A stretch of 32,000 nt of DNA from Candidatus Nanopusillus acidilobi. Its GTDB lineage: Archaea; Nanobdellota; Nanobdellia; Nanobdellales; Nanobdellaceae. The translations under genes and the position numbers were made by a program. Location of the stretch: assembly GCA_001552015.1 (NCBI GenBank), contig CP010514.1, positions 150,001 to 182,000 on the forward strand, written 5' to 3'. This document shows positions 1,141 to 17,048 of the stretch, in pieces. The notes below the pieces were generated by a model. The model had not been told where the DNA came from. It was given only the letters and a program-made list of their open reading frames with translations, and did not search any database. Each line of letters starts with the position of its first letter. Position 1 is the first letter of the stretch.

Positions 1141-1366
1141 AGTATTTTATAATTTCTTTTTTTATATTTTGGCCTTTATTTTCATATTTCTTATATAGTA
1201 CATTTGAAGAAAACAGTAATTTCATTTTAATATTTTATTTGTTAGTTTTATAAATATTTTTTAACAATTTATTACTGATGATTTGTTATCGATTAAATAT
1301 CTTTGTAGTCTTTGAAACTTTATATATTAATCTAATTTGACCAATTTAAATATCTTTTTATATTTC

Positions 1367-1864
1367 ATGATAAATTATTATAAAATGAGTGATCTGGGAA
1401 CGGCAATAGTGACAATTAGCGGTATAGCTATAGTAATAGTATTTCTTATATTGGAATGGATCATTATTACAATACCTGCTTATTTGGCTGCCAAACTTTT
1501 TGGTAGTGATGCATCATTTTCAAGGGCCATGGGTGCTGTTTTACTTTCAGAAATAGCAGCTGTCATAATAATAATATTTTTTATATTTATTTCGATTGTA
1601 TATAAAAGTTTCATATTAGGTATTTCAGGATTAATTATAGCCTTTATAGCTGTTTTAGGTGTATATAAATCTATGTTTAATGTGGGTTGGGGAGCAGCAT
1701 TTGGTATAATAATTGTATCTATTATAATAGTAATTATCTTTAATCTGATATTGTCCTTGTTTGGTATTAATATCTTTCCTTTACCTGGTGGCTCTCAATT
1801 GCAATCATTTTTATCCCCATTATTCAATCTAACCAATATTTTTCATGGCTTTAACCTAGGTTGA
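1367..1864 (+). CDS. multi-pass membrane protein, paralog family A (single module)
   Basis: Hydrophobic ORF. Shares the ordered motifs Y-x(2,3)-AK-x-[FL]-x(3,4)-SF and YK-x2-FN-x-[GS]W-x2-AFG-x2-IVS with 2825..3631 (twice) and 11092..11571. Start ambiguous: TTG 1337, ATG 1367 (MINYYKMSDLG) or ATG 1385 (MSDLG). The YYKM context is also present in the 11571 paralog. Confidence 0.7.
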   Translation: MINYYKMSDLGTAIVTISGIAIVIVFLILEWIIITIPAYLAAKLFGSDASFSRAMGAVLLSEIAAVIIIIFFIFISIVYKSFILGISGLIIAFIAVLGVYKSMFNVGWGAAFGIIIVSIIIVIIFNLILSLFGINIFPLPGGSQLQSFLSPLFNLTNIFHGFNLG

Positions 1865-2066
1865 AACATCTTAAATGTTTTTTAATAATTTTGAGATTTT
1901 TATATGAAGACTATTAGAAAATTAAAAAAATTTTATTTAAAGTAAATATATTTATATTATAGCATTAACAAATTTTAAAAATAATAAAATTATTATTCCT
2001 TTTATTAAGGTTTGGCTTATTATTCTCGTAGTAATTTTAATATTAATAGTAGGATTTTTTATAGCA

Positions 2067-2510
2067 ATGTATAATTCTCTAATAGCATTAAAGAAAAATG
2101 CAGAAAAGGCATGGTATGATATAGATGTATTATTGCAAAAGAGACATGATGTGTTAGCAAAATTAGTAGAAACAGTAAGTAGTTATTTAACATATGAAAG
2201 AACAGTTCTTGAAAAATTAACACAAATGAGAACTCAATATATGAATTTACCATCAAATGACATACAATCAAAAATAAATTTATCAAATCAAATTACAGGA
2301 GCTTTTAGATATTTATTTGCAGATACTGGAAAAATGATAGATATGAAGCCAGTAAAGGTTACTGTTCCAGATATGTCAACCGGAATTTTATGGTTATCTA
2401 TAACAAGGATATTTGGACGTGAATTCATTGGATGGGCAGCTTTAGATATATTCTTTGGAATAGGTTTTTTGATTTTGACAATTTGGATATTAACTAAATT
2501 TTTATTATAA
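2067..2510 (+). CDS. lemA: LemA-family protein (divergent C-terminus with extra TM segment); true start probably upstream of the first ATG
   Basis: MYNSLIALKKNAEKAWYDIDVLLQKRHDVLAKLVETV matches the LemA signature YNxLVxLRxxVxxAWsxIDVqLkrRxDLIPnLVEtV. The frame is open upstream to 1941 and encodes the expected N-terminal anchor helix (VWLIILVVILILIVGFFIA) with no ATG/GTG/TTG. Confidence 0.7.
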   Translation: MYNSLIALKKNAEKAWYDIDVLLQKRHDVLAKLVETVSSYLTYERTVLEKLTQMRTQYMNLPSNDIQSKINLSNQITGAFRYLFADTGKMIDMKPVKVTVPDMSTGILWLSITRIFGREFIGWAALDIFFGIGFLILTIWILTKFLL

Positions 2511-2824
2511 GAATTATTTATATATCAGTACCTAAGATAGATAAAAATTTAGAAAAAGAGATTATAGAGATAATAAAACCTGTTTTGTGTAATGCTTCAT
2601 AAAGTTTTTATATTTTTCAAATCTTTAATGTGTATTTGTCAGCAAGCGCCTTATAATATTCTGCAGATATTTTTACATCTTTTTTATGGAATATATCTTT
2701 CCTTTTTCAAAAGTTTCAAATATTATGTTTGTAACCTTTATAATGGAAAATATAATAAACTTATAAAAGTTAGATATTCTTTAGCTAAAAATATATATAA
2801 TTCGGAATTTTTATATTTTATAGA

Positions 2825-3631
2825 ATGAATGATCTAGAATTATTATCAGTAATTCTTGGGCTGAGAATCTCAGAAGCACTCATGATTCTTGTACTAGGAT
2901 GGATTATAGGTTCGATACCTATTTATTTTGTTGCTAAGCATTTTAATAAAAATGTATCATTTGAGAAGATTTTAGGTTTTATTATACTTTTAGGAATATT
3001 ATACTTTATAATAATAGTAAAATTTAATTATTTCTTTTATATAATTGGAATAATTATAGATTTTATAATATTTTTAAATTTTATAATATTTCTAAGTATC
3101 TATAAAATTGTATTTAATGCAAGTTGGAGAGTGGCTTTTGGTATGTCTATTGTATCTATTGTAGCTATCATGATAGAGATTATCTTAATATCGGTAGTAT
3201 TTGCGGTAGCTGATGGAATATCTACAGTATATATACCGGTAGGAAAAATGGAAATAGAAATTATTGGAATAATAATGTGGTTTATGTTGGGATTAATTTT
3301 GTCTGTAATATTTATCTATTTGATTGCTAAACTTCTTAATATAAACATATCCTTTTTAGAGAATTCAACAGTCAACTTATTTCCAGGAACATTATCTTTT
3401 ATAATAATCATAATTTCTGTCTTACTATATATATTAGCAGAAAACAATGTAGGATTCTTTATAGGAGCAGGTATAATTTTCATAGTAGTTTCAATTTCCT
3501 ATAAATATATACTTAATATAAGTTGGAGAAAAGCTATTCTTATGTCAATTATATTTAGTGTATTATGGCCTATTATTGGTCTAAAAATATTACCTTATTA
3601 TATTCATATCTATTATATGGCTTGTTGCTAA
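2825..3631 (+). CDS. multi-pass membrane protein, paralog family A (tandem duplicated module)
   Basis: 268 aa with two copies of the family A module. Copy 1: IYFVAKHFNKNVSF...YKIVFNASWRVAFGMSIVS. Copy 2: IYLIAKLLNINISF...YKYILNISWRKAILMSIIFS. Confidence 0.75.
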   Translation: MNDLELLSVILGLRISEALMILVLGWIIGSIPIYFVAKHFNKNVSFEKILGFIILLGILYFIIIVKFNYFFYIIGIIIDFIIFLNFIIFLSIYKIVFNASWRVAFGMSIVSIVAIMIEIILISVVFAVADGISTVYIPVGKMEIEIIGIIMWFMLGLILSVIFIYLIAKLLNINISFLENSTVNLFPGTLSFIIIIISVLLYILAENNVGFFIGAGIIFIVVSISYKYILNISWRKAILMSIIFSVLWPIIGLKILPYYIHIYYMACC

Positions 3632-4106
3632 TATATTTGTGTGTCCTTATAAAGTACATATACGGTATGATTCCATGTCGTATAACAGAAATTATCCGTC
3701 ATGGTTCCTGAATGAGTTGGGGTAGGTATAGCGTGGTATGATTTTTGGAGATAAGTTTTGGTATAGTTAATCTAGGTTAATTAATATAGTTTTTGTAATT
3801 CTAAGAACATAATTTCTATATAGAAAGGGCCAAAATGTTCCAGAACTAATTAGTTTTATATTAGCTTTAGTAATTCTATATTATCTGTACATTTAACAGA
3901 ATTTTTGTGGGATTTATATAATATCTATGGTAAATGAATAATATATGCTATTTATTATGTTTTGTGTATATCTTTTTAATACTCTTTAAAATTGATTCTA
4001 TTTTTTAATGTTACTAAATATTAAAAATTTTTAAACACATTTAAATGAAAGATCTTCCTTTTATTTAATATAAATTTTTTGATATAAAGAATATTTTATT
4101 GTTAAT

Positions 4107-4538
4107 CTAGTATTTTTTCTTCAAACAATTGTAAACTTCTTTAGACTTATAATAACAAAACATTGTAAAACTTATTATTATAAATATTATTATAATAAAT
4201 GTACCAAAGCTATATATTCCTGCTAAATATGAACTAATTATTGAAAAATAACTAGTTAGATGGTTATTATTCAAGATTATCTCATAAATATAAAATTTTA
4301 ACTCAAAATCTCCCATAATGGATATTAAAATGCCGGGTAGTAATAATAAATAGGAAATATTAAAGAGCATTATAAATATTTTAGCACTATTTGATATGTT
4401 AATTCTTAGAGTTATGATTAAAACTATTAGTGGTAAAATTAATAATACTAAGAATATTAAAGGATAATATGATAAAGATGCAACGTTACTTACTGAGGCT
4501 GTTATTGTATAATTAAAGCTAACGTTTGCTGTTACCAC
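4107..4538 (-). CDS. membrane protein, paralog family B (N-module only)
   Basis: GTG start. SNSAKIFIMLFNISYLLLLPG...IILNNNHLTSYFSIISSYLAGIY...FCYYKSKEVYNCLKK aligns colinearly with the N-terminal third of 7817..9061 (PNKTKIFILCFNMIYSLLLLY...VILNNMYMTSYFSIFSSILTEIY...MCLYKFKETRNFKEY). Confidence 0.6.
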   Translation of the reverse strand: MVTANVSFNYTITASVSNVASLSYYPLIFLVLLILPLIVLIITLRINISNSAKIFIMLFNISYLLLLPGILISIMGDFELKFYIYEIILNNNHLTSYFSIISSYLAGIYSFGTFIIIIFIIISFTMFCYYKSKEVYNCLKKKY

Positions 4539-11749: not shown

Positions 11750-14700
11750 TTATTTTCCAGAAAGTATTTCCATTAATTCTTTAAATCCTTCTAATTCTTC
11801 TTTAGAAATTCCATATAATTCAGCAACTGCTAAATCGATTTTTTCTTCAACTTTTTTAAGTTCTTCCTTTGCATTAATATTTTTACAATAATCAGGTTTA
11901 TTATTGGAATATATACATTTTGCTAATTCATGAGCTCTTTCAGATAATTCAGTAATTTTATTATGTAAATTATTATCGGGGTCGAATTTTGGTATTTTAA
12001 TGATATCTATAATATGTGTTTCTTGTCTTAACTCATATGTATAAGATGCTATTATTGAACGAACTATAGTTGAATTTAAAACTCCCGCAATATAATAAGC
12101 TTCATTAGGAGATTTGGCTTCCACTAATATAATTCCATCATCAGGTATTACAGGTTTTTCATTAATAGGTTCAACAACTGCGCAAGCAAAGCTTACCGCT
12201 TTACCGGTAATGGCGCCGGCAATTCTGGTCCATACAACTTTATAGGGTGCTAAGGATGCCTTAACATTGTTCATAACATAATAAAATGGTACAGTCATTT
12301 TCTCAGCTTTATAGAATGGATACTTTTTATAAGGTGCCATTTTTTGTTTTAGGAATCCTCCACTTCTATTTATTAAATCATTAAAGAATTGATAGAAATA
12401 TTGATATGTATAAGGATATTTTGTTTTCATTATATGATGTGGAATAGGATCTCCTTCTTTATCATGTGGCAATATTATATATTTATCTTTAAACTCTACG
12501 TACCATTTCTTTATATCTCTGCCCCTAACTAATGGATAAATAAGATCTGATTCTACTCTAGCTTCAACCTGTTTGACATTTTTCTTCTGTCCACTTTCAG
12601 GCGGATTTGTTATGATTAACATACCATCGGGAGTTTTTTCAAGTACTTTAATATAATAAATCTGGTTAAGAGCTGTATAAACTCCTGCATATGCCTCATA
12701 ATATTGATTTCCGTTTATTATTTTTCTAATTGAATTTATAATATTGGGTTTAACTTGCATCCATGGTGATGTAGGATCATTAAGTATTAAAGGAATCATT
12801 GTTATTTCATAATGTTTCGTCATCTTAATGACATCTTTTAAAGATGTATTTGGATCTATTTTCTTTCCAGTCCATACAATATGTTTAATGCCATTCATAT
12901 TTTCTTTCTGTATTTCTTTAATAATTGTACATTCATTATCATTCATATTATCTAATTCACAAACTTTTTCAACAATAATAATTCCTGTTCTATTTATTGC
13001 ACCTTCAAAGGGCATTAATGTTACTAAATCATGAATAACATGTATTTTTGTTTTTCTAGCTAAGAAATTTCTAAATCCAGCACCTGCTTGTGTTTTAAAT
13101 ACTGTAAATGTTATTACAAATCCTAATTTTCCACCTACTTTTAAATATAAGTCAAAACATCTTGCTAAGAATAGCATAGATAAATCTTTTTTGAATTTAT
13201 TGATTCCAGTTTTTCCTTCAATTTCTAATAATCCATATTTTTTCCAAAGTTCTTTACTCGATTCTCTATATTGTTCAGGCAAGTCATCCCATCTTATCCA
13301 TGGGGGGTTTCCAATTACATAATCAAATTTACCCTTTAATATTGGAGCAAATGCATTTCTAATTATAGCTATCCATACATCATCTTTACCTTGTAGTCTA
13401 AGATCAAGTAATTTTTTATAAAGATCAATTAAACTCTTTTTCTCTGAAGAATTTAAACCATATGGTGAAATTCTAAATTCAAATTCTTTAGGTGTACATC
13501 CATTCTCTAAACACATTTTTATTTCGTCTAATATTTTTCTTAAAAGATCTGTATTTTGTGCAGTATTAACAGGTATTTTAAATTCACCAACTGCAGTCCT
13601 TAATATATAATACTTTTCAGTAATTTCTGCTTTTGTTTCAATCATTATAGAATCTGCTAAGTAAATTGGAATTTCAATACTTCCTAATCCACTTTGTTGT
13701 AATAGATCCGCAATGGTTAATAAATAATTTGTTCTTGCGGTTAAGACTGCTAATGGATTTAAATCATAACCAACAACATTTTCAAGTATATATTTAGCTA
13801 ATGTATCTGTTAAGTAATGTTCATTGGCATATCTTATTAATCTACTAATATAAAGTATAAGAAAGGTACCTGATCCGCATGCAGGATCTAAAACTCTAAT
13901 TTCTAAAGGTTTTAATGGATCGTCTTTTCCCATATTTTCTAAATTTTCATAACTTAATCCAACTTCATTAATTATTAATTCTGCTAACCAATCAGGTGTA
14001 TAATATTCTCCTAAATTATGTCTAATATCTCTTGGAACAAGATTTTGATATAATTTCTTTAATAAATCTCTGGCAAATTCAGGTTCTAATTGTGGAGTTG
14101 CTATTTCGTAATCAGAAAGTCTTCTTGCAATTTCAGCAATAACATCTCCTAATTCTTGATCTATTTCTTCAACATACCATGAAAAATAGTCTCCTTCTAA
14201 AAAGTTTTCAATACCTAATAATTTTTTAAATATACCACCGCTTTCTAATTCTTTTAATATATTTTTTAAACCTTCAATACCTTTAGATGTATAAGCATTA
14301 TCAAGTTCTACAATATATGATTTATAAAATCTACCGCTTCCATATAAATAAGCTATTTCGGCAGCAATTAATTTCATTATCAATGCATAATATGTATGTA
14401 TGGCAAAAATTAGAATATCATAATTAATATTAGACTTTTCAAATCCATAATCTTCTGCTAATTCTTTTAATTCTTTAAATTTATTTGGATCATAACCTGT
14501 GGCCTGTTTAAATAATCTCGTCCAATCTTCAAATAATATTTTTGTTTTTTCATTTTTTGTATTTAATAATTTTGTATAAAGTAATTTTATTGACCTTTTA
14601 GATATTTGAGAATTCATACCAAAATCTTTAGCAATTTCTTCTGCACTCAAAATTTTTCTTCTTAAACCTCTTAAAGCTTCTATTAATTTTATAATAGATT

Positions 14701-15136
14701 CTCTTCTAATTTCATAAGGTCCTCTTAATATCCATATATTATTTCTTTTATCATATCTAACAAATGCAATTTTATCACTAATAATTATTCCTAAAAATTT
14801 ATCATAATTACTTTTGTCTCCAGCTTCAGTGATTATATATTTAATAGCTTGTTCCTTTACTTTTTGAATATCGGAATCTGTTGATAATTTACCAGGGGCT
14901 TTGTATTCAATAATAACATGTCCATATAAAGCATCTACTCTCTTACCAGAAGCTAAAGTATATTCATATTTACCTTCAAAAGGTATATTTAATGGTTTTA
15001 ATATTTTTTCTTCAATGCAATTTGATACTCTAATTCTCAAATCTTCTTCTGTACGTGCTTGAAGAATTCCATTTCTAATACATATTAATATGTCATCAAT
15101 ATCAAACTGATTTAGAGAATTACTATTAGGAGGCAT
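11750..15136 (-). CDS. Type IIG/IIL-like fused restriction-modification enzyme: N-terminal PD-(D/E)xK (MmeI-like) + gamma-class N6-adenine DNA methyltransferase + C-terminal target-recognition region
   Basis: D68-X8-E77-X-K79 in RVDALYGHVIIEYKAPGKL (nt 14900..14935). MTase motif X YYTPDWLAE, motif I VLDPACGSGTFL (about nt 13862..13891), motif IV VIGNPPWIRW (NPPW at about 13299..13310). The C-terminal YPLVRGRDIKKWYV...IDLAVAELYGISKEELEGF is typical of Eco57I/TaqI_C-type TRDs. Confidence 0.85.
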   Translation of the reverse strand: MPPNSNSLNQFDIDDILICIRNGILQARTEEDLRIRVSNCIEEKILKPLNIPFEGKYEYTLASGKRVDALYGHVIIEYKAPGKLSTDSDIQKVKEQAIKYIITEAGDKSNYDKFLGIIISDKIAFVRYDKRNNIWILRGPYEIRRESIIKLIEALRGLRRKILSAEEIAKDFGMNSQISKRSIKLLYTKLLNTKNEKTKILFEDWTRLFKQATGYDPNKFKELKELAEDYGFEKSNINYDILIFAIHTYYALIMKLIAAEIAYLYGSGRFYKSYIVELDNAYTSKGIEGLKNILKELESGGIFKKLLGIENFLEGDYFSWYVEEIDQELGDVIAEIARRLSDYEIATPQLEPEFARDLLKKLYQNLVPRDIRHNLGEYYTPDWLAELIINEVGLSYENLENMGKDDPLKPLEIRVLDPACGSGTFLILYISRLIRYANEHYLTDTLAKYILENVVGYDLNPLAVLTARTNYLLTIADLLQQSGLGSIEIPIYLADSIMIETKAEITEKYYILRTAVGEFKIPVNTAQNTDLLRKILDEIKMCLENGCTPKEFEFRISPYGLNSSEKKSLIDLYKKLLDLRLQGKDDVWIAIIRNAFAPILKGKFDYVIGNPPWIRWDDLPEQYRESSKELWKKYGLLEIEGKTGINKFKKDLSMLFLARCFDLYLKVGGKLGFVITFTVFKTQAGAGFRNFLARKTKIHVIHDLVTLMPFEGAINRTGIIIVEKVCELDNMNDNECTIIKEIQKENMNGIKHIVWTGKKIDPNTSLKDVIKMTKHYEITMIPLILNDPTSPWMQVKPNIINSIRKIINGNQYYEAYAGVYTALNQIYYIKVLEKTPDGMLIITNPPESGQKKNVKQVEARVESDLIYPLVRGRDIKKWYVEFKDKYIILPHDKEGDPIPHHIMKTKYPYTYQYFYQFFNDLINRSGGFLKQKMAPYKKYPFYKAEKMTVPFYYVMNNVKASLAPYKVVWTRIAGAITGKAVSFACAVVEPINEKPVIPDDGIILVEAKSPNEAYYIAGVLNSTIVRSIIASYTYELRQETHIIDIIKIPKFDPDNNLHNKITELSERAHELAKCIYSNNKPDYCKNINAKEELKKVEEKIDLAVAELYGISKEELEGFKELMEILSGK

Positions 15137-15349
15137 AATATTATAATTTATAAATTATTTAAGAATTTTACTTTTAGTTTTTAGTATGAAATAATAAGAA
15201 CGTTATATTAATTTTATTTAACTATTTTCATTATCTTAAATAGTGTGAAAAATATGTCAGTAATTTAATAGTTTTTTGTTTTATTCAAATATACTGGAAG
15301 AAGCATAAATACATGCTATGTTAATAAAATTTTACACAAATTCATAATA

Positions 15350-15955
15350 ATGGTAAGATGTCCCTTTTGTGGTTCAGAAGATTTAACATTAATTAGTTCA
15401 TGGAAATATGGGGCTTTTGATGTATATAGATATAAATGTAATAAATGTGGAAATAAGTTTAATTATTATAAAGGAAAAATTACAGAATTTTATATACCAA
15501 AATCAAAAAACCAAAAAATGAATAAAGAAGAAAATAAAGAAGTTGATTATAATCATGAAGAAGTAAAGTCTTGGTTACAGGAGATTGGTGAAGTATTAGG
15601 ATATTATACTTATCCTGAATTTGGAGATGAACAATATAGGTTTGATATTGTCTATAAATTGTTTAATAGTGAAAAACAACCACCTGTAGCAGTTTTTGAA
15701 GTTGTAGATAGTAATACTGTTGATAACTCTCTTTCAAGATTATTTTATGCATATAGAACTTTTAGACCTGAGGGATTATATTTAATAGTTTTAGATAATA
15801 AATATCAAGAAAGGGCAAAGAAATTGTTAGAAAATACATATCCAGAAATAAAGGATAAAGTAGAAATATTAGATGCAAATAAAATAAAAGAATTAAGAGA
15901 TATATTAAATAAATATGGAGATGAAATAAAGAAATTAATAAATCTGGGAAAGTAA
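15350..15955 (+). CDS. Zn-ribbon protein with C-terminal restriction-endonuclease-like (PD-(D/E)xK-fold-like) domain
   Basis: N-terminus CPFCGSEDL...YRYKCNKCGNKF is a C4 ribbon resembling the IS1/IS1595-type transposase zinc ribbon. After a Lys/Glu linker comes HEEVKSWLQEIGEVLGYYTYPE...RFDIVYKLF...PPVAVFEVVDS...SLSRL, the H..I...L..IG..LGY / hDhhW-Y / hFEV pattern of small RE-like modules. No canonical Lys follows the Glu. Confidence 0.65.
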   Translation: MVRCPFCGSEDLTLISSWKYGAFDVYRYKCNKCGNKFNYYKGKITEFYIPKSKNQKMNKEENKEVDYNHEEVKSWLQEIGEVLGYYTYPEFGDEQYRFDIVYKLFNSEKQPPVAVFEVVDSNTVDNSLSRLFYAYRTFRPEGLYLIVLDNKYQERAKKLLENTYPEIKDKVEILDANKIKELRDILNKYGDEIKKLINLGK

Positions 15956-16025
15956 ATATTAAAATCATACACTTTTTAGTCATTTAAGTATTTTATCTTG
16001 AGCTATAATTTTTCGTTATATTTTC

Positions 16026-16068
16026 TATATATGTATAATTACAATTAGTATAATTATGATTATACAAA
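16026..16068 (+). repeat. 43-bp perfect direct repeat, copy B (partner at 7721..7763)
   Basis: Identical 43-mer. It supplies the ATG and first four codons (MIIQ) of ORF 16056..16295. Confidence 0.9.
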
Positions 16069-16295
16069 TAATGAAAAATACTAGGGATATATATTTAATA
16101 GAATGTAAATATTCTGATAATATAAATCCAAAAGAAATATTAGAAAATCTAAAGGAAAAATCCGAATATTTAAATTTAGATATAAGAAATAAATACTATA
16201 TAATATTTGCAAAAAGTTTTAAAGAAAGAATTAAAGAAAATAATTTATATTTATTTGATTTAGAAGATTTAGAAAATATAATGTATCGAATATAA
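16056..16295 (+). CDS. DUF234-like C-terminal fragment of an archaeal ATPase (probable gene remnant)
   Basis: NTRDIYLIECKYSDNINPKEILENLKEKSEYLNLD...IIFAKSFKERIKENNLYLFDLEDLENI matches the C-terminal DUF234 module (..ECKW....v....L.eK......F..sGF......L.dL.dl) of ~450-aa Arch_ATPase proteins. The AAA part is absent, and the start codon lies inside the 43-bp repeat. Confidence 0.55.
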   Translation: MIIQIMKNTRDIYLIECKYSDNINPKEILENLKEKSEYLNLDIRNKYYIIFAKSFKERIKENNLYLFDLEDLENIMYRI

Positions 16296-16416
16296 GAGTT
16301 ACATAATTTATTGTTATCAATTATTGAGCTAAATAAATTAGCATTATACTTATACTAGATATATTTGCTAGAATAATATAATTCTTTTTAAAATAAAATT
16401 TTTATTATATCTTATA

Positions 16417-16465
16417 ATGAAGAAAAACTCATCGGCTGATAAATGATGAGGGTCTTGAGCTCAGA
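16417..16465 (+). ncRNA. C/D-box sRNA candidate 1
   Basis: ATGAAGA(16417-23)-aaaactcatcgg-CTGA(16436-39)-taaa-TGATGA(16444-49)-gggtcttgagct-CAGA(16462-65), followed by T6. Box spacing is identical to candidate 2 and both guides are 12 nt. Confidence 0.65.
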
Positions 16466-16471
16466 TTTTTT
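16466..16471 (+). terminator. oligo-T tract after C/D sRNA candidate 1
   Basis: tttttt directly after the D-like box. Archaeal RNAP terminates at T-runs. Confidence 0.35.
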
Positions 16472-16494
16472 AATATTTTATTGAACAATTATTA

Positions 16495-16716
16495 ATGGAA
16501 GAAGAATTGTATGCAACAAAATATGAACTTTATATTTCTTTAATAATTACATTGATAGTTATTGCAATAATAACGAATACATTAATTAATTTACCATATA
16601 AAAACCTATATTACATGTCAACACTGATTATATTAACATTAATTATTATAGATGTTTATGTATATTTATCATATAAAGGAAAAATACCCTTATATAAGGT
16701 AAAGAAAAAAGATTAA
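16495..16716 (+). CDS. small two-TM membrane protein (hypothetical)
   Basis: 73-aa ORF with ATG start and two hydrophobic helices. Its stop overlaps the stop of the convergent 16713..17048 in a shared TTAA. Confidence 0.4.
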   Translation: MEEELYATKYELYISLIITLIVIAIITNTLINLPYKNLYYMSTLIILTLIIIDVYVYLSYKGKIPLYKVKKKD

Positions 16717-17048
16717 TTCTTTTTAGATTTTGCAATATCTAAAGCTCTTATTTTAACTAAATCTTCAATTCTATCATATAATATTGATTCAGCTAACTTA
16801 TATTTATATTCAATATCTTTATATACTAGATAAGCTTTCTTTATTTGATTATTTTTCATATATTCATCAAATATTTTCTTTCTTTCAACAATATCCTCCA
16901 AAATATTTAATATATCATTATCTTTAAATGACATTAATAATAACATCTTTGCTTCACTATCTTGTATTCTATTAAATAATTTTTTTGCATGTAATCTATA
17001 CAAACTAATTAACATGGTCAAGTTGTTAATCATATTGTCAATCTTCAT
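16713..17048 (-). CDS. hypothetical helical protein
   Basis: 111-aa ORF with ATG start, 34 nt downstream of tyrS on the same strand. Confidence 0.55.
   Translation of the reverse strand: MKIDNMINNLTMLISLYRLHAKKLFNRIQDSEAKMLLLMSFKDNDILNILEDIVERKKIFDEYMKNNQIKKAYLVYKDIEYKYKLAESILYDRIEDLVKIRALDIAKSKKN

Follow-up and report, generated by a model that had tools for sequence, protein, structure and literature searches.

A divergent Zn-ribbon/nuclease-fold gene beside a type IIG enzyme in Candidatus Nanopusillus acidilobi points to a multi-component variant of type IIG restriction-modification

The islet analysed here lies at positions 11750-16295 (genes AMD29661-3) of a window of 32,000 nucleotides from the Candidatus Nanopusillus acidilobi genome (contig CP010514.1, positions 150,001 to 182,000). 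Its three open reading frames (ORFs) were all found at the coordinates given by the initial annotation. Features are listed below in window coordinates.

11750..15136, minus strand: type IIG restriction-modification enzyme gene (1128 aa; AMD29661.1, annotated 'N-6 DNA methylase')
11996..12535, minus strand: target-recognition region, residues 868-1047 (weak TaqI_C match; mosaic among homologues)
13298..13309, minus strand: methyltransferase motif IV, NPPW, residues 610-613 (catalytic motif of N6-adenine methyltransferases)
13859..13894, minus strand: methyltransferase motif I, AdoMet-binding, VLDPACGSGTFL, residues 415-426
14900..14941, minus strand: putative PD-ExK nuclease motif R66-V-D68-X8-E77-Y-K79, RVDALYGHVIIEYK, residues 66-79
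15137..15349, no strand: divergent intergenic region of 213 bp, holding both promoters; very A+T-rich
15350..15955, plus strand: Zn-ribbon/PD-(D/E)xK protein gene (201 aa; AMD29662.1, annotated 'hypothetical')
15350..15508, plus strand: Zn-ribbon module, residues 1-53 (C4, C7, C30, C33, W18, motif EFYIPK; from the alignment)
15548..15952, plus strand: PD-(D/E)xK-fold domain, residues 67-201 (from homologues, conservation profile, AlphaFold model and fold neighbours)
16056..16295, plus strand: 79-aa ORF, at most a candidate member of the system (AMD29663.1; GC 15.4%)

The large ORF had been read as a nuclease-methyltransferase fusion, and this was confirmed by the PADLOC model PDLC03630 (REase_MTase_IIG, REBASE-derived), which covers it end to end (model positions 1-1100 of 1100, 1714 bits); taken alone, it is of a kind already catalogued. 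Pfam matches were Eco57I, N6_Mtase, MmeI_Mtase and, weakly, TaqI_C, and the GC content of the gene is 27.2% versus 23.6% for the window. Motif I precedes motif IV in the large ORF, the gamma-class order. Among 24 homologues (59-97% identity) the methyltransferase motifs were invariant. Residues D68, E77 and K79 were invariant as well; the motif is therefore no chance match, and the N-terminus is regarded as a putative PD-ExK nuclease. Four of the 24 also displayed a weak match to Pfam Tox-REase-9. The TaqI_C match (E=5.5e-4, under the Pfam cut-off) was present in 20 of the 24, and at least four interchangeable sequence variants occurred at alignment columns ~1000-1200. AMD29661.1 represents a short form, devoid of a ~100-aa C-terminal extension.

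The order of PD-ExK motif, helical connector, gamma-class N6-adenine methyltransferase and C-terminal recognition region is shared with the IIG/IIL enzymes Eco57I, MmeI and BpuSI. The description of the large ORF as 'MmeI-like' and some 200 aa longer than MmeI was accurate as to length (1128 aa versus 919 aa for MmeI in the PDB), and the MmeI_Mtase family does score 28.5 against a cut-off of 27, but the relationship is distant: the profile match to the MmeI structure reached only E=0.026, as against E=3e-9 for PglX/BrxX, and the N-terminal, helical and TRD Pfam families of MmeI gave no match. Among solved structures, those of the BREX proteins PglX/BrxX (8c45, 9ewz, 8zek) matched the methyltransferase region best (E=3e-9 to 6e-7), and long-form IIG relatives are followed by a protein carrying BrxL_N and BrxL_ATPase. 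Unlike BREX systems, however, the islet contains no PglZ, BrxC, BrxA, BrxB or BrxL-like gene, and the large ORF retains the PD-ExK motif and scores 27-50 bits on NCBIfam BREX methyltransferase models with cut-offs of 400-900. In the relatives, the BrxL-like protein (~475 aa) covers no more than the first ~470 positions of BrxL models of ~680-700 residues and has no Lon-protease Pfam match.

The small ORF combines, as had been proposed, a Zn ribbon with a restriction-endonuclease-like domain. The ribbon (CxxC...CxxC, formed by C4, C7, C30 and C33) stands ahead of the nuclease-fold core and is homologous to a family of ~60-70-aa stand-alone proteins in Thermoproteota; structurally it is closest to NrdR- and TFIIS-type ribbons, and it bears a basic C-terminal tail. 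The AlphaFold model of the protein (pLDDT 90.8) shows an alpha-beta-beta-beta-alpha-beta core after the ribbon, with the PD-(D/E)xK nucleases NucS/EndoMS, EcoT38I, MUS81 and OkrAI as best structural neighbours, together with viral models labelled 'PD-(D/E)XK nuclease' or 'restriction enzyme'; no relative of the protein was encoded on the viral contigs searched. NucS/EndoMS, the archaeal mismatch endonuclease, was the best solved-structure neighbour (Foldseek E=3.6e-3, probability 0.99) and likewise has two domains, a beta-rich N-terminal one and a C-terminal PD-(D/E)xK one. The TM-score was nevertheless only 0.35 at 12% sequence identity, no sequence-profile relationship was found, and NucS differs in lacking a Zn ribbon and in its genomic context. 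Values of dN/dS among four Nanopusillus alleles were 0.13-0.31 for both domains, and the 201-aa ORF is therefore a real gene under purifying selection. It matches no PADLOC model.

Searches with the nuclease-fold domain retrieved 228 distant relatives (E<=1e-3), and the N-terminal partners among the 61 scanned were EVE (9), Mrr_N (8), DUF1802 (2) and MrcB_N (1). A winged helix was another N-terminal module swapped in among these relatives. The domain itself is covered neither by Pfam (Mrr_cat included) nor by any PDB sequence. The established design of modification-dependent restriction enzymes is a reader joined to a PD-(D/E)xK nuclease (PMC6765204, PMC7641849), these being type IV enzymes combining PUA/EVE/SRA readers or Mrr_N fusions with such a nuclease (PMC6765204, PMC7641849, PMC2938202). 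The C-terminal domain of the 201-aa protein shares the nuclease fold and is homologous to that of the EVE-, Mrr_N-, MrcB_N- and DUF1802-fused proteins, but a Zn ribbon replaces the modified-base reader, the domain subtype lacks several consensus polar residues, and linkage to a methyltransferase-bearing enzyme is unusual for type IV. According to the conservation profile, the Nanopusillus domain retains H69, E90, D99 and E117, while V119, F132, Y133, R136 and P165 stand where the family consensus has Q/E, K, H, D and H. Its nuclease activity is uncertain because the valine at position 119 occupies the K/Q/E position of the (D/E)xK triad. This consensus-lacking subtype is itself conserved, with EVE as well as Zn N-termini. 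A P0134-type fusion and a split EVE-domain gene encode nuclease-fold domains that are ~90% identical, and fusions therefore arise when the EVE part is simply deleted.

Exactly 213 bp separate the large gene from the divergent small one, as first reported. This stretch contains a perfect palindrome (ATAATTTATAA/TTATAAATTAT, 15143-15158), and in four Nanopusillus loci it is conserved at both ends, next to the genes. Downstream of the small gene, the 79-aa ORF had been taken for a DUF234 remnant. The string D-x4-E-C-K is present, but no Pfam, NCBIfam or PADLOC match was obtained even at E<=1, PDB sequences yielded nothing meaningful, and an ATPase remnant sought upstream was not found, the intervening genes in one relative coding for membrane proteins; the DUF234 identity was not confirmed. 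Only a 16-aa piece of this ORF recurs, in a related Nanopusillus contig. Of the three PD-(D/E)xK-type modules originally claimed, those of the large and 201-aa ORFs hold, leaving two nuclease-fold modules rather than three because the putative remnant is without support.

Linkage was surveyed in ~100 fetched loci (numbered L). Ribbon and nuclease domain formed a single protein or were split between neighbouring genes, in either order, and adjoined Eco57I-type IIG genes co-directionally, divergently or convergently, sometimes together with a BrxL-like ATPase. Among loci fetched through the ribbon or domain, IIG genes of the same family were co-directional in L053, L055-58, L072, L078, L084, L087, L089 and L094, and related ones lay tail-to-tail in L010, L048-52, L059 and L062-63. 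An Eco57I-type gene was found within 4.5 kb in 9 of the 14 Zn sequence clusters listed, and in Nanopusillus an IIG gene adjoins 22 of 24 ribbon genes. When only the large enzyme was used to fetch loci, the ribbon was present in four of the eight from outside Nanopusillus, one of them also with an EVE-domain gene. The initial annotation had suggested that conservation of the small nuclease-like gene would point to a two-component variant, and homologues of this gene, fused or split into two neighbouring genes, do accompany Eco57I-type IIG genes at many loci of another phylum, in three orientations. PADLOC does not contain this partnership of ribbon, nuclease domain and IIG enzyme, which is conserved in different phyla, and we regard it as a multi-component variant of type IIG restriction-modification.

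Type IIG is defined in textbook terms as 'a type IIG module alone' (PMC12988326, PMC10609329). In contrast, the family of the large ORF recurrently occurs with a Zn-ribbon gene and a reader- or ribbon-fused nuclease gene, and its long form also with a BrxL-like ATPase gene. The earlier statement that such enzymes need no partner stands in part: half of the sampled IIG homologues have no ribbon nearby, so the enzyme clearly works without it, but relatives are often accompanied by a BrxL-like ATPase and a Zn ribbon. IIG enzymes thought self-sufficient thus seem to have a regular, undescribed partner.

It is about an even call, in our estimation, that the islet is a laterally acquired compact module in which the small protein is a conserved partner, probably a second nuclease with the ribbon as docking or control element. 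Restriction modules of this kind are common in hot-spring Thermoproteota, and the islet would be a compact form of one. The N-terminal PD-ExK nuclease of the single-chain IIG enzyme would cut DNA lacking the mark, which the gamma-class N6-adenine methyltransferase and the mosaic target-recognition region would place on the cell's own DNA. The divergent protein would be a partner of such IIG enzymes and no chance neighbour, joining a restriction-modification-linked Zn ribbon to a nuclease-fold domain that in relatives is the effector part of type IV-like reader-nuclease enzymes. It would most likely bring a second nuclease activity to the module, the ribbon taking the place of the EVE reader as a nucleic-acid-binding or docking and control element. 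The data show the identity of the domains, their fold, purifying selection and the conserved linkage of ribbon, nuclease domain and IIG gene, whereas catalysis by either nuclease, physical contact between the proteins and a binding target for the ribbon are inferred, and the small protein may act as second nuclease arm or as controller. Linkage evidence is guilt by association throughout, and defence islands also bring together restriction and type IV genes that do not cooperate.

A possible but rather doubtful alternative is that the Zn ribbon is an archaeal counterpart of a C protein, regulating the divergent promoter region rather than cutting DNA. Such a small nucleic-acid-binding regulator would time or limit expression of nuclease-bearing genes, and in Nanopusillus would be fused to a catalytically weakened domain, now serving mainly for dimerisation or DNA binding. 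Stand-alone ribbons are typically the first gene of an operon, 5-100 bp upstream of IIG or EVE-nuclease genes (L024, L025, L022, L087, L107), and they also adjoin type I HsdR and HsdS genes and a beta-class methyltransferase, as expected of a generic regulator; first-in-operon ribbons beside such varied restriction genes agree with a general controller role no less than with a subunit role. The divergent layout with a conserved shared region, the basic tail and the missing consensus residues (Q/E119, K132, H133, D136, H165) point the same way, as does a ~23-nt element (TTGTAACCGAAACACCYAAATWA) conserved upstream of ribbon genes amid otherwise unrelated DNA, although it resembles an ordinary BRE/TATA promoter. 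Like C proteins, Mu Com, Rac Lar and the structurally close ribbon of the NrdR repressor, the ribbon is small, and it lies at the 5' edge of several kinds of restriction operon. C proteins of type II restriction-modification are helix-turn-helix proteins, however, and the islet encodes none; the operator and DNA binding by the ribbon are putative, and the weak Lar and Com matches were all under family cut-offs and inconsistent (3 of 10 ribbons). Moreover, the invariance of H69, E90, D99 and E117 under purifying selection is hard to explain if the domain is purely structural, the 'degenerate' subtype is conserved with both types of N-terminus, and repeated fusion or adjacency with the nuclease domain suggests a physical partnership beyond transcriptional control alone.

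It is unlikely that the small protein works on its own as a type IV-like or type II-like endonuclease with a Zn-ribbon DNA-binding module, merely sharing a defence islet or integration hot spot with the IIG enzyme. The free swapping of N-terminal modules (EVE, Mrr_N, MrcB_N, winged helix, Zn ribbon) would agree with such independence, as would seven informative Thermoproteota loci with ribbon and domain and without an IIG gene, a module flanked by two integrase genes (L107) and a relative lying among MazE-like, BrxL-remnant and MkoA-like helicase genes (L011). The IIG partner is also exchangeable for a different family: in L028 a GC-rich Caldivirga-like Eco57I-type gene has replaced it, and the small gene stays put. 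Left unexplained, however, would be stand-alone ribbons beside IIG genes without a nuclease domain (L003, L004, L024, L025, L107) or right beside EVE-domain genes in both orders, as well as short, operon-like gaps and an adjacency persisting in fused, split, divergent, co-directional and convergent layouts. Very improbable is a decay scenario, with the small gene and the 79-aa ORF as functionless leftovers of a larger system that came from the host (EVE-nuclease, ribbon, IIG, BrxL-like). Nanopusillus does lack the EVE part, the BrxL-like gene and the IIG C-terminal extension, and degraded versions exist elsewhere (a deletion remnant in L011/L071, BrxL fragments in L084, a fragmented IIG gene in L022), but the dN/dS values, frames intact in most of more than 20 Nanopusillus contigs, and retention of the small gene in a 606-kb genome, even after the IIG gene next to it had been exchanged, argue against it. 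Thermoproteota of hot springs include lineages that host Nanopusillus, and the same pairing recurs in these host lineages of a tiny symbiotic archaeon.

The three predicted proteins of the islet were exact matches to AMD29661.1, AMD29662.1 and AMD29663.1 of Candidatus Nanopusillus acidilobi (genome of 605,887 bp), and the ORF positions put forward by the initial annotation were recovered unchanged. The first two genes are divergent, with a spacing of 213 bp:

11750-15136, minus strand: large enzyme, 1128 aa, AMD29661.1
15350-15955, plus strand: small protein, 201 aa, AMD29662.1
16056-16295, plus strand: 79-aa ORF, AMD29663.1, 15.4% G+C
16001-17000: lowest-G+C stretch of the window (18.2% G+C), directly after the islet

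Overall G+C content of the window was about 23.6%. No tRNA or integrase gene flanked the islet within the window, where the only tRNAs lie at 24.2-24.6 kb.

The large ORF was covered over positions 1-1100 of 1100 (1713.7 bits) by the REBASE-derived PADLOC model PDLC03630 (REase_MTase_IIG). This full-length match to a curated profile assigns it to type IIG, in which nuclease and methyltransferase share a single polypeptide. Pfam matches were Eco57I (E=4e-18), N6_Mtase, a marginal MmeI_Mtase and a sub-threshold TaqI_C. Motif I (DPACGSGTFL, 417-426) precedes motif IV (NPPW, 610-613), the order of gamma-class N6-adenine methyltransferases, and both D417-F425 and NPPW were unchanged across 24 homologues sharing 59-97% identity. 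No PDB sequence match covered the N-terminus. Its putative nuclease assignment rests on the curated profile and on motif invariance, D68, E77 and K79 of the D68-X8-E77-X-K79 motif being invariant in the 24 aligned homologues; four of these also gave a weak match to the restriction-fold toxin family Tox-REase-9. Taken alone, the large ORF adds one more, new example to an enzyme type that is already catalogued.

Its description as MmeI-like was found to hold at superfamily level, and not for the strict MmeI (type IIL) family: MmeI_Mtase alone matched, spanning 64 residues and scoring 28.5 bits where 27 is the cut-off, while the other MmeI Pfam families (helical spacer, TRD, C-terminal) were not matched. 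Against the MmeI structure 5hr4, the large-enzyme profile reached E=0.026, whereas the methyltransferase region was nearer by sequence to PglX/BrxX structures (E=3e-9). Membership in BREX, which combines a PglX-type methyltransferase with PglZ and BrxC (in types 1 and 4 also with BrxL), was rejected, NCBIfam BREX methyltransferase models scoring far under their cut-offs. Homologues of BrxL, PglZ and BrxC were not found in the window, and relatives of the large enzyme elsewhere have a BrxL-like gene only. These relatives come in two forms (L-numbers designate fetched genomic or metagenomic loci).

Forms of the large enzyme among its homologues
Long form, with a C-terminal beta-rich extension of ~100 aa: L003, L004/L005, L006, L024, L058, L072, L107, L108-110
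Short form: L007-L009, L057, L084 and all Nanopusillus loci (window 11750-15136)

The long form was always directly followed by a gene of ~475 aa carrying BrxL_N and BrxL_ATPase, intact in most loci, split into two ORFs in L107 and interrupted by the contig end in L072. An intact copy was never found beside the short form, including that of the window; L084 combines the short form with BrxL fragments. The extension may be a docking site for the BrxL-like ATPase.

A word-index search with the small protein retrieved only Nanopusillus proteins (80-95% identical), and PDB sequence searches with the protein and its family profile gave chance matches only. A profile of residues 58-201 recovered 228 relatives among 1.84 billion representatives. 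The shared domain corresponds to no Pfam family and was C-terminal in every relative scanned; N-terminal partners in these 61 relatives were EVE (nine), Mrr_N (eight), DUF1802 (two) and MrcB_N (one), with winged-helix domains in others. Modification-dependent restriction enzymes are built in this way, as a reader joined to a nuclease (PMC6765204, PMC7641849). The putative nuclease domain of the small protein is homologous to that of these reader-fused type IV enzymes, but no reader (EVE/PUA/SRA, Mrr_N, McrB_N) was detected in it by Pfam, NCBIfam or PADLOC, and residues 1-53 form a Zn ribbon instead. The protein matched no PADLOC model. A viral origin was discarded, since no relative was present among 2.9 million viral contigs.

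An AlphaFold model built on a 60-sequence alignment reached a pLDDT of 90.8 (an earlier run on 14 near-identical sequences, with a pLDDT of 62, was too poor). It displayed a four-stranded ribbon (12-49), a disordered linker (54-61) and a core made of helix 69-82, strands 86-93, 96-103 and 114-119, helix 124-138 and strand 142-147. As modelled, residues 67-201 adopt the PD-(D/E)xK core topology. The best solved neighbours in Foldseek were NucS/EndoMS, EcoT38I, MUS81 and OkrAI, with the NrdR ribbon as best neighbour of the N-terminus, and a viral structure library returned entries named 'PD-(D/E)XK nuclease' and 'restriction enzyme' together with NrdR-like ribbons. Residues conserved family-wide are H69, E78, G80, E90, D99, W102, F116, E117, Q/E119, K132, H133, D136 and F164-H165-E166. 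The window protein retains H69, E90, D99 and E117, and carries F132, Y133, R136, P165 and V119, the last at a position where the family has Q, E or H and where, two residues behind the second acid, K, Q or E is expected of a PD-(D/E)xK nuclease. This altered subtype is not the product of random decay; it also occurs in archaeal contigs of higher G+C with either an EVE or a Zn N-terminus. Within Nanopusillus, dN/dS of the small gene was 0.13-0.31, with purifying selection in both halves; that the gene is a relic is accordingly the least probable of the explanations considered here, a very improbable one.

A scan of 185,579 species genomes yielded two Nanopusillus loci and thirteen loci from Thermoproteota. 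In 12 of the latter the match was limited to the ribbon (from residues 1-39 to 1-56), encoded by stand-alone genes of ~60-77 codons (ribbon and basic tail); in the thirteenth, L014, it spanned an EVE-domain gene and the adjoining ribbon gene. Eco57I-type enzymes adjoined the ribbon in five loci, L014 and the first four listed below.

Restriction genes next to ribbon genes
L024: ribbon, IIG and BrxL-like gene in a single operon
L025: ribbon, then IIG
L022: ribbon, then fragmented IIG
L020: ribbon divergent from a 1331-aa enzyme
Other neighbours: type I HsdR (L015), type I S subunit (L021), beta-class methyltransferase (L019), SNF2/NOV_C helicase (L016)

Where loci were collected with the large enzyme as sole query, the sample carries no bias for or against the ribbon. 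It was present in four of eight such loci (Acidilobus L003, Caldivirga maquilingensis L004, L107 and Pyrobaculum L108-110) and absent from L006-L009. Com and Lar were considered as identities of the ribbon and rejected, every score being inconsistent and below cut-off. For the Lar model (TIGR03655), the window protein scored 26.6 bits against a curated cut-off of 39.6, and among ten stand-alone ribbons three scored 18-23 bits and the rest had no match.

A metagenome scan provided 80 further loci, which were mapped with HMMs of the ribbon, the nuclease domain, the large enzyme and the BrxL-like protein; taxonomy of these contigs was inferred from G+C content and matches to named genomes.

Arrangements of ribbon, nuclease domain and IIG gene in metagenomic and genomic loci
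Ribbon and domain fused (contigs of 38-51% G+C): for example L048-L061, L070, L071, L078, L081
Ribbon, then adjacent EVE-domain gene (also 38-51% G+C contigs): L062-64, L073, L077, L079-80, L085-89
EVE-domain gene, then adjacent ribbon (also 38-51% G+C contigs): L014, L072, L074, L076, L082-84, L092, L094
IIG gene of the same family following within about 100 bp: L053, L055-58, L072, L078, L084, L087, L089, L094
Related IIG-type gene tail-to-tail: L010, L048-52, L059, L062-63

A BrxL-like gene was additionally present in L058 and L072. In L011 and L071, the fused gene is directly followed by a deletion remnant in which ~45 N-terminal residues of the IIG enzyme run into the C-terminal portion of a BrxL ATPase. 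Among the tabulated ribbon sequence clusters, 9 of 14 had an Eco57I-type gene within 4.5 kb, as did the minus-strand ribbon of L004, outside these clusters. Seven informative loci with ribbon and domain lacked an IIG gene. The divergent pair was nearly universal in Nanopusillus-like contigs of 21-27% G+C (22 of 24). Since surveys report well under one type IIG gene per Thermoproteota genome (PMC10609329), this adjacency cannot be due to chance. It constitutes an association, not proof of joint function; independent co-location of the small protein and the IIG gene is nonetheless unlikely, albeit less so than a relic.

We therefore regard the locus as a variant type IIG system whose accessory proteins are conserved. 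The models for its working build on domain content, fold, selection and linkage, from which we infer what the accessory proteins do. The IIG enzyme would be the autonomous core, methylating its own site and cutting unmarked DNA, as half of its relatives occur without the ribbon. The small protein would be an accessory to it: that ribbon and nuclease domain are repeatedly fused or adjacent suggests, by the gene-fusion argument, that they act together, and as the ribbon also adjoins IIG genes independently, it would be the hub that links the enzyme to the accessory nuclease. The model we favour, with about even confidence, is that of an additional nuclease arm which the ribbon tethers or controls.

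Its main rival, clearly less probable and still well ahead of independent co-location, is that the ribbon acts as a controller. It is in line with the first-gene position of the ribbon, its association with several restriction types, its NrdR-like structure, the conserved element upstream of ribbon genes and the consensus residues missing from the Nanopusillus domain. Known controller (C) proteins bind DNA through a helix-turn-helix (HTH) and have a C-box operator ahead of their own gene. No HTH match was obtained for the islet proteins, and the spacer contained only A+T-rich palindromes of uncertain meaning; by analogy, the small protein may have a C-protein-like role.

Beyond the tethered nuclease arm, a broader proposal can be put forward tentatively. 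Hot-spring archaea and their nanoarchaeal symbionts might share a hitherto undescribed multi-component restriction system, with a dedicated Zn-ribbon adaptor linking a type IIG enzyme to a nuclease domain. In the full version an EVE domain would guide the nuclease, in the minimal one of Nanopusillus the nuclease would be fused to the ribbon, and the ~100-aa extension of the long form would couple the enzyme to a BrxL-like AAA+ ring. The Nanopusillus locus would then be the smallest working form and would trade IIG cassettes with the lineage of its host. A system of this kind would link BREX to classical restriction-modification and to modification-dependent restriction. By definition and in annotation, type IIG enzymes stand alone. 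If they regularly have partners, namely a Zn ribbon, a reader- or ribbon-fused nuclease and a BrxL-like ATPase, their loci would have to be detected and interpreted differently in archaea, for which few defence systems are known (PMC12988326). Such a partner set would also offer a small tractable system for an open question in BREX, namely how ATPases of the BrxL type work together with PglX-type methyltransferases, and a context for more than 200 uncharacterised nuclease-domain proteins and a small Zn-ribbon family. The literature searched covered EVE-restriction associations in general terms, and the combination of ribbon, nuclease, IIG and BrxL-like protein was not found in it.

The nearest relatives of the large enzyme outside Nanopusillus (60-72% identical) were from Acidilobus, Caldivirga, Pyrobaculum, Thermofilum, Sulfolobus and a Verstraetearchaeota MAG, and the G+C content of its gene is slightly raised (27.2% against 23.6% in the surroundings); these two features fit a lateral acquisition from the host community. 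The recognition region is a mosaic, with at least four unrelated sequence variants at columns ~1000-1200 of the homologue alignment (window residues ~880-1010; about 12100-12500), shuffled independently of overall relatedness, which suggests frequent specificity switching through recombination. The variant of the window is shared with the metagenomic protein P0033 (72% identical) and not with P0049 from Acidilobus. Between L002/L013 and the window, small proteins were 88% identical and the adjoining large enzymes only about 65-68%, implying a much higher rate of divergence or exchange for the restriction gene than for the gene beside it.

In two contigs (L028 579-4038 and L038 3141-6602), an Eco57I-type gene of 42-51% G+C replaces the usual IIG beside a Nanopusillus-type small gene. 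At the DNA level this gene was 87.7% (L028) and up to 95% (L038) identical to that of Caldivirga sp. L014, and in L028 it is flanked on both sides by A+T-rich Nanopusillus DNA. Two samples show this junction, 92% identical between them, so that a genuine, recent cassette swap from host lineage to symbiont is more probable than a mis-assembly. In a 606-kb obligate symbiont, a pair kept under purifying selection and a restriction cassette swapped with host-like DNA bear on gene flow and virus defence in the host-symbiont pair.

Several other loci displayed particular contexts. On a 492-kb contig (L107 2677-12227), ribbon, long-form IIG, split BrxL-like and PLD-family nuclease genes lie between two integrase genes and adjoin a histidyl-tRNA synthetase gene, which suggests that the module travels on an integrative element. 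In A+T-rich Nanopusillus-like contigs L037 (357-2405) and L041 (7903-11050), the small gene borders on a segment of 43-50% G+C with genes for 606/683-aa and 450-aa proteins; in L037 the 683-aa ORF continues the reading frame of the Zn-ribbon N-terminus, either through insertion into the ribbon gene or as an assembly artefact. In L011 (4381-7692, MAG GCA_038835675.1) and L071, the fused gene for ribbon and nuclease is 36% identical; it overlaps an upstream MazE/AbrB-type gene and is followed by the IIG/BrxL remnant and a 634-aa SF1 helicase matching Mokosh MkoA models, a cluster that resembles a defence island. In Pyrobaculum sp. (L108-110 1178-4357), the ribbon/IIG/BrxL-like operon is preceded by an EVE-domain nuclease gene and by another Eco57I/TaqI_C methyltransferase gene, which is shorter (466 aa) and has a partner of 287 aa encoded on the other strand, so that two Eco57I-type systems lie side by side.

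A 127-aa ORF without Pfam match was observed immediately upstream of the ribbon gene in L010 (735-1118) and about 25 other loci of the Thermoproteota-like group (for example L048, L053, L059-61, L078, L080-81, L085-88, L095, L097-102 and L104-105), and is absent in Nanopusillus; possibly the module includes this ORF as well. The 79-aa ORF had been regarded as a DUF234 (PF03008) fragment. Its D-x4-E-C-K string is present, but no family was matched at E<=1, and Pfam, NCBIfam, PADLOC and PDB lent no support to this identity. An ATPase remnant was found neither in the window nor in L002, a related locus, and the upstream frame is closed. It had no entry in the contig index, and only a 16-residue stretch of it recurs, in a related contig.

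The element TTGTAACCGAAACACCYAAATWA was conserved about 25-45 nt upstream of ribbon start codons, even where DNA further upstream is unrelated (L010, L014, L016, L038, L048, L053, L055, L058-L064, L069, L072-L074 and L076-L106). It resembles a BRE/TATA promoter travelling with the cassette and could also be an operator. An operator search of the 213-bp spacer (15137-15349) itself gave only A+T-rich palindromes indistinguishable from background. A perfect overlapping 11-nt palindrome (ATAATTTATAA/TTATAAATTAT) lies at 15143-15158, 7-22 nt upstream of the large-gene start codon and inside a stretch that does not vary among four Nanopusillus loci; this could be no more than the TATA box.
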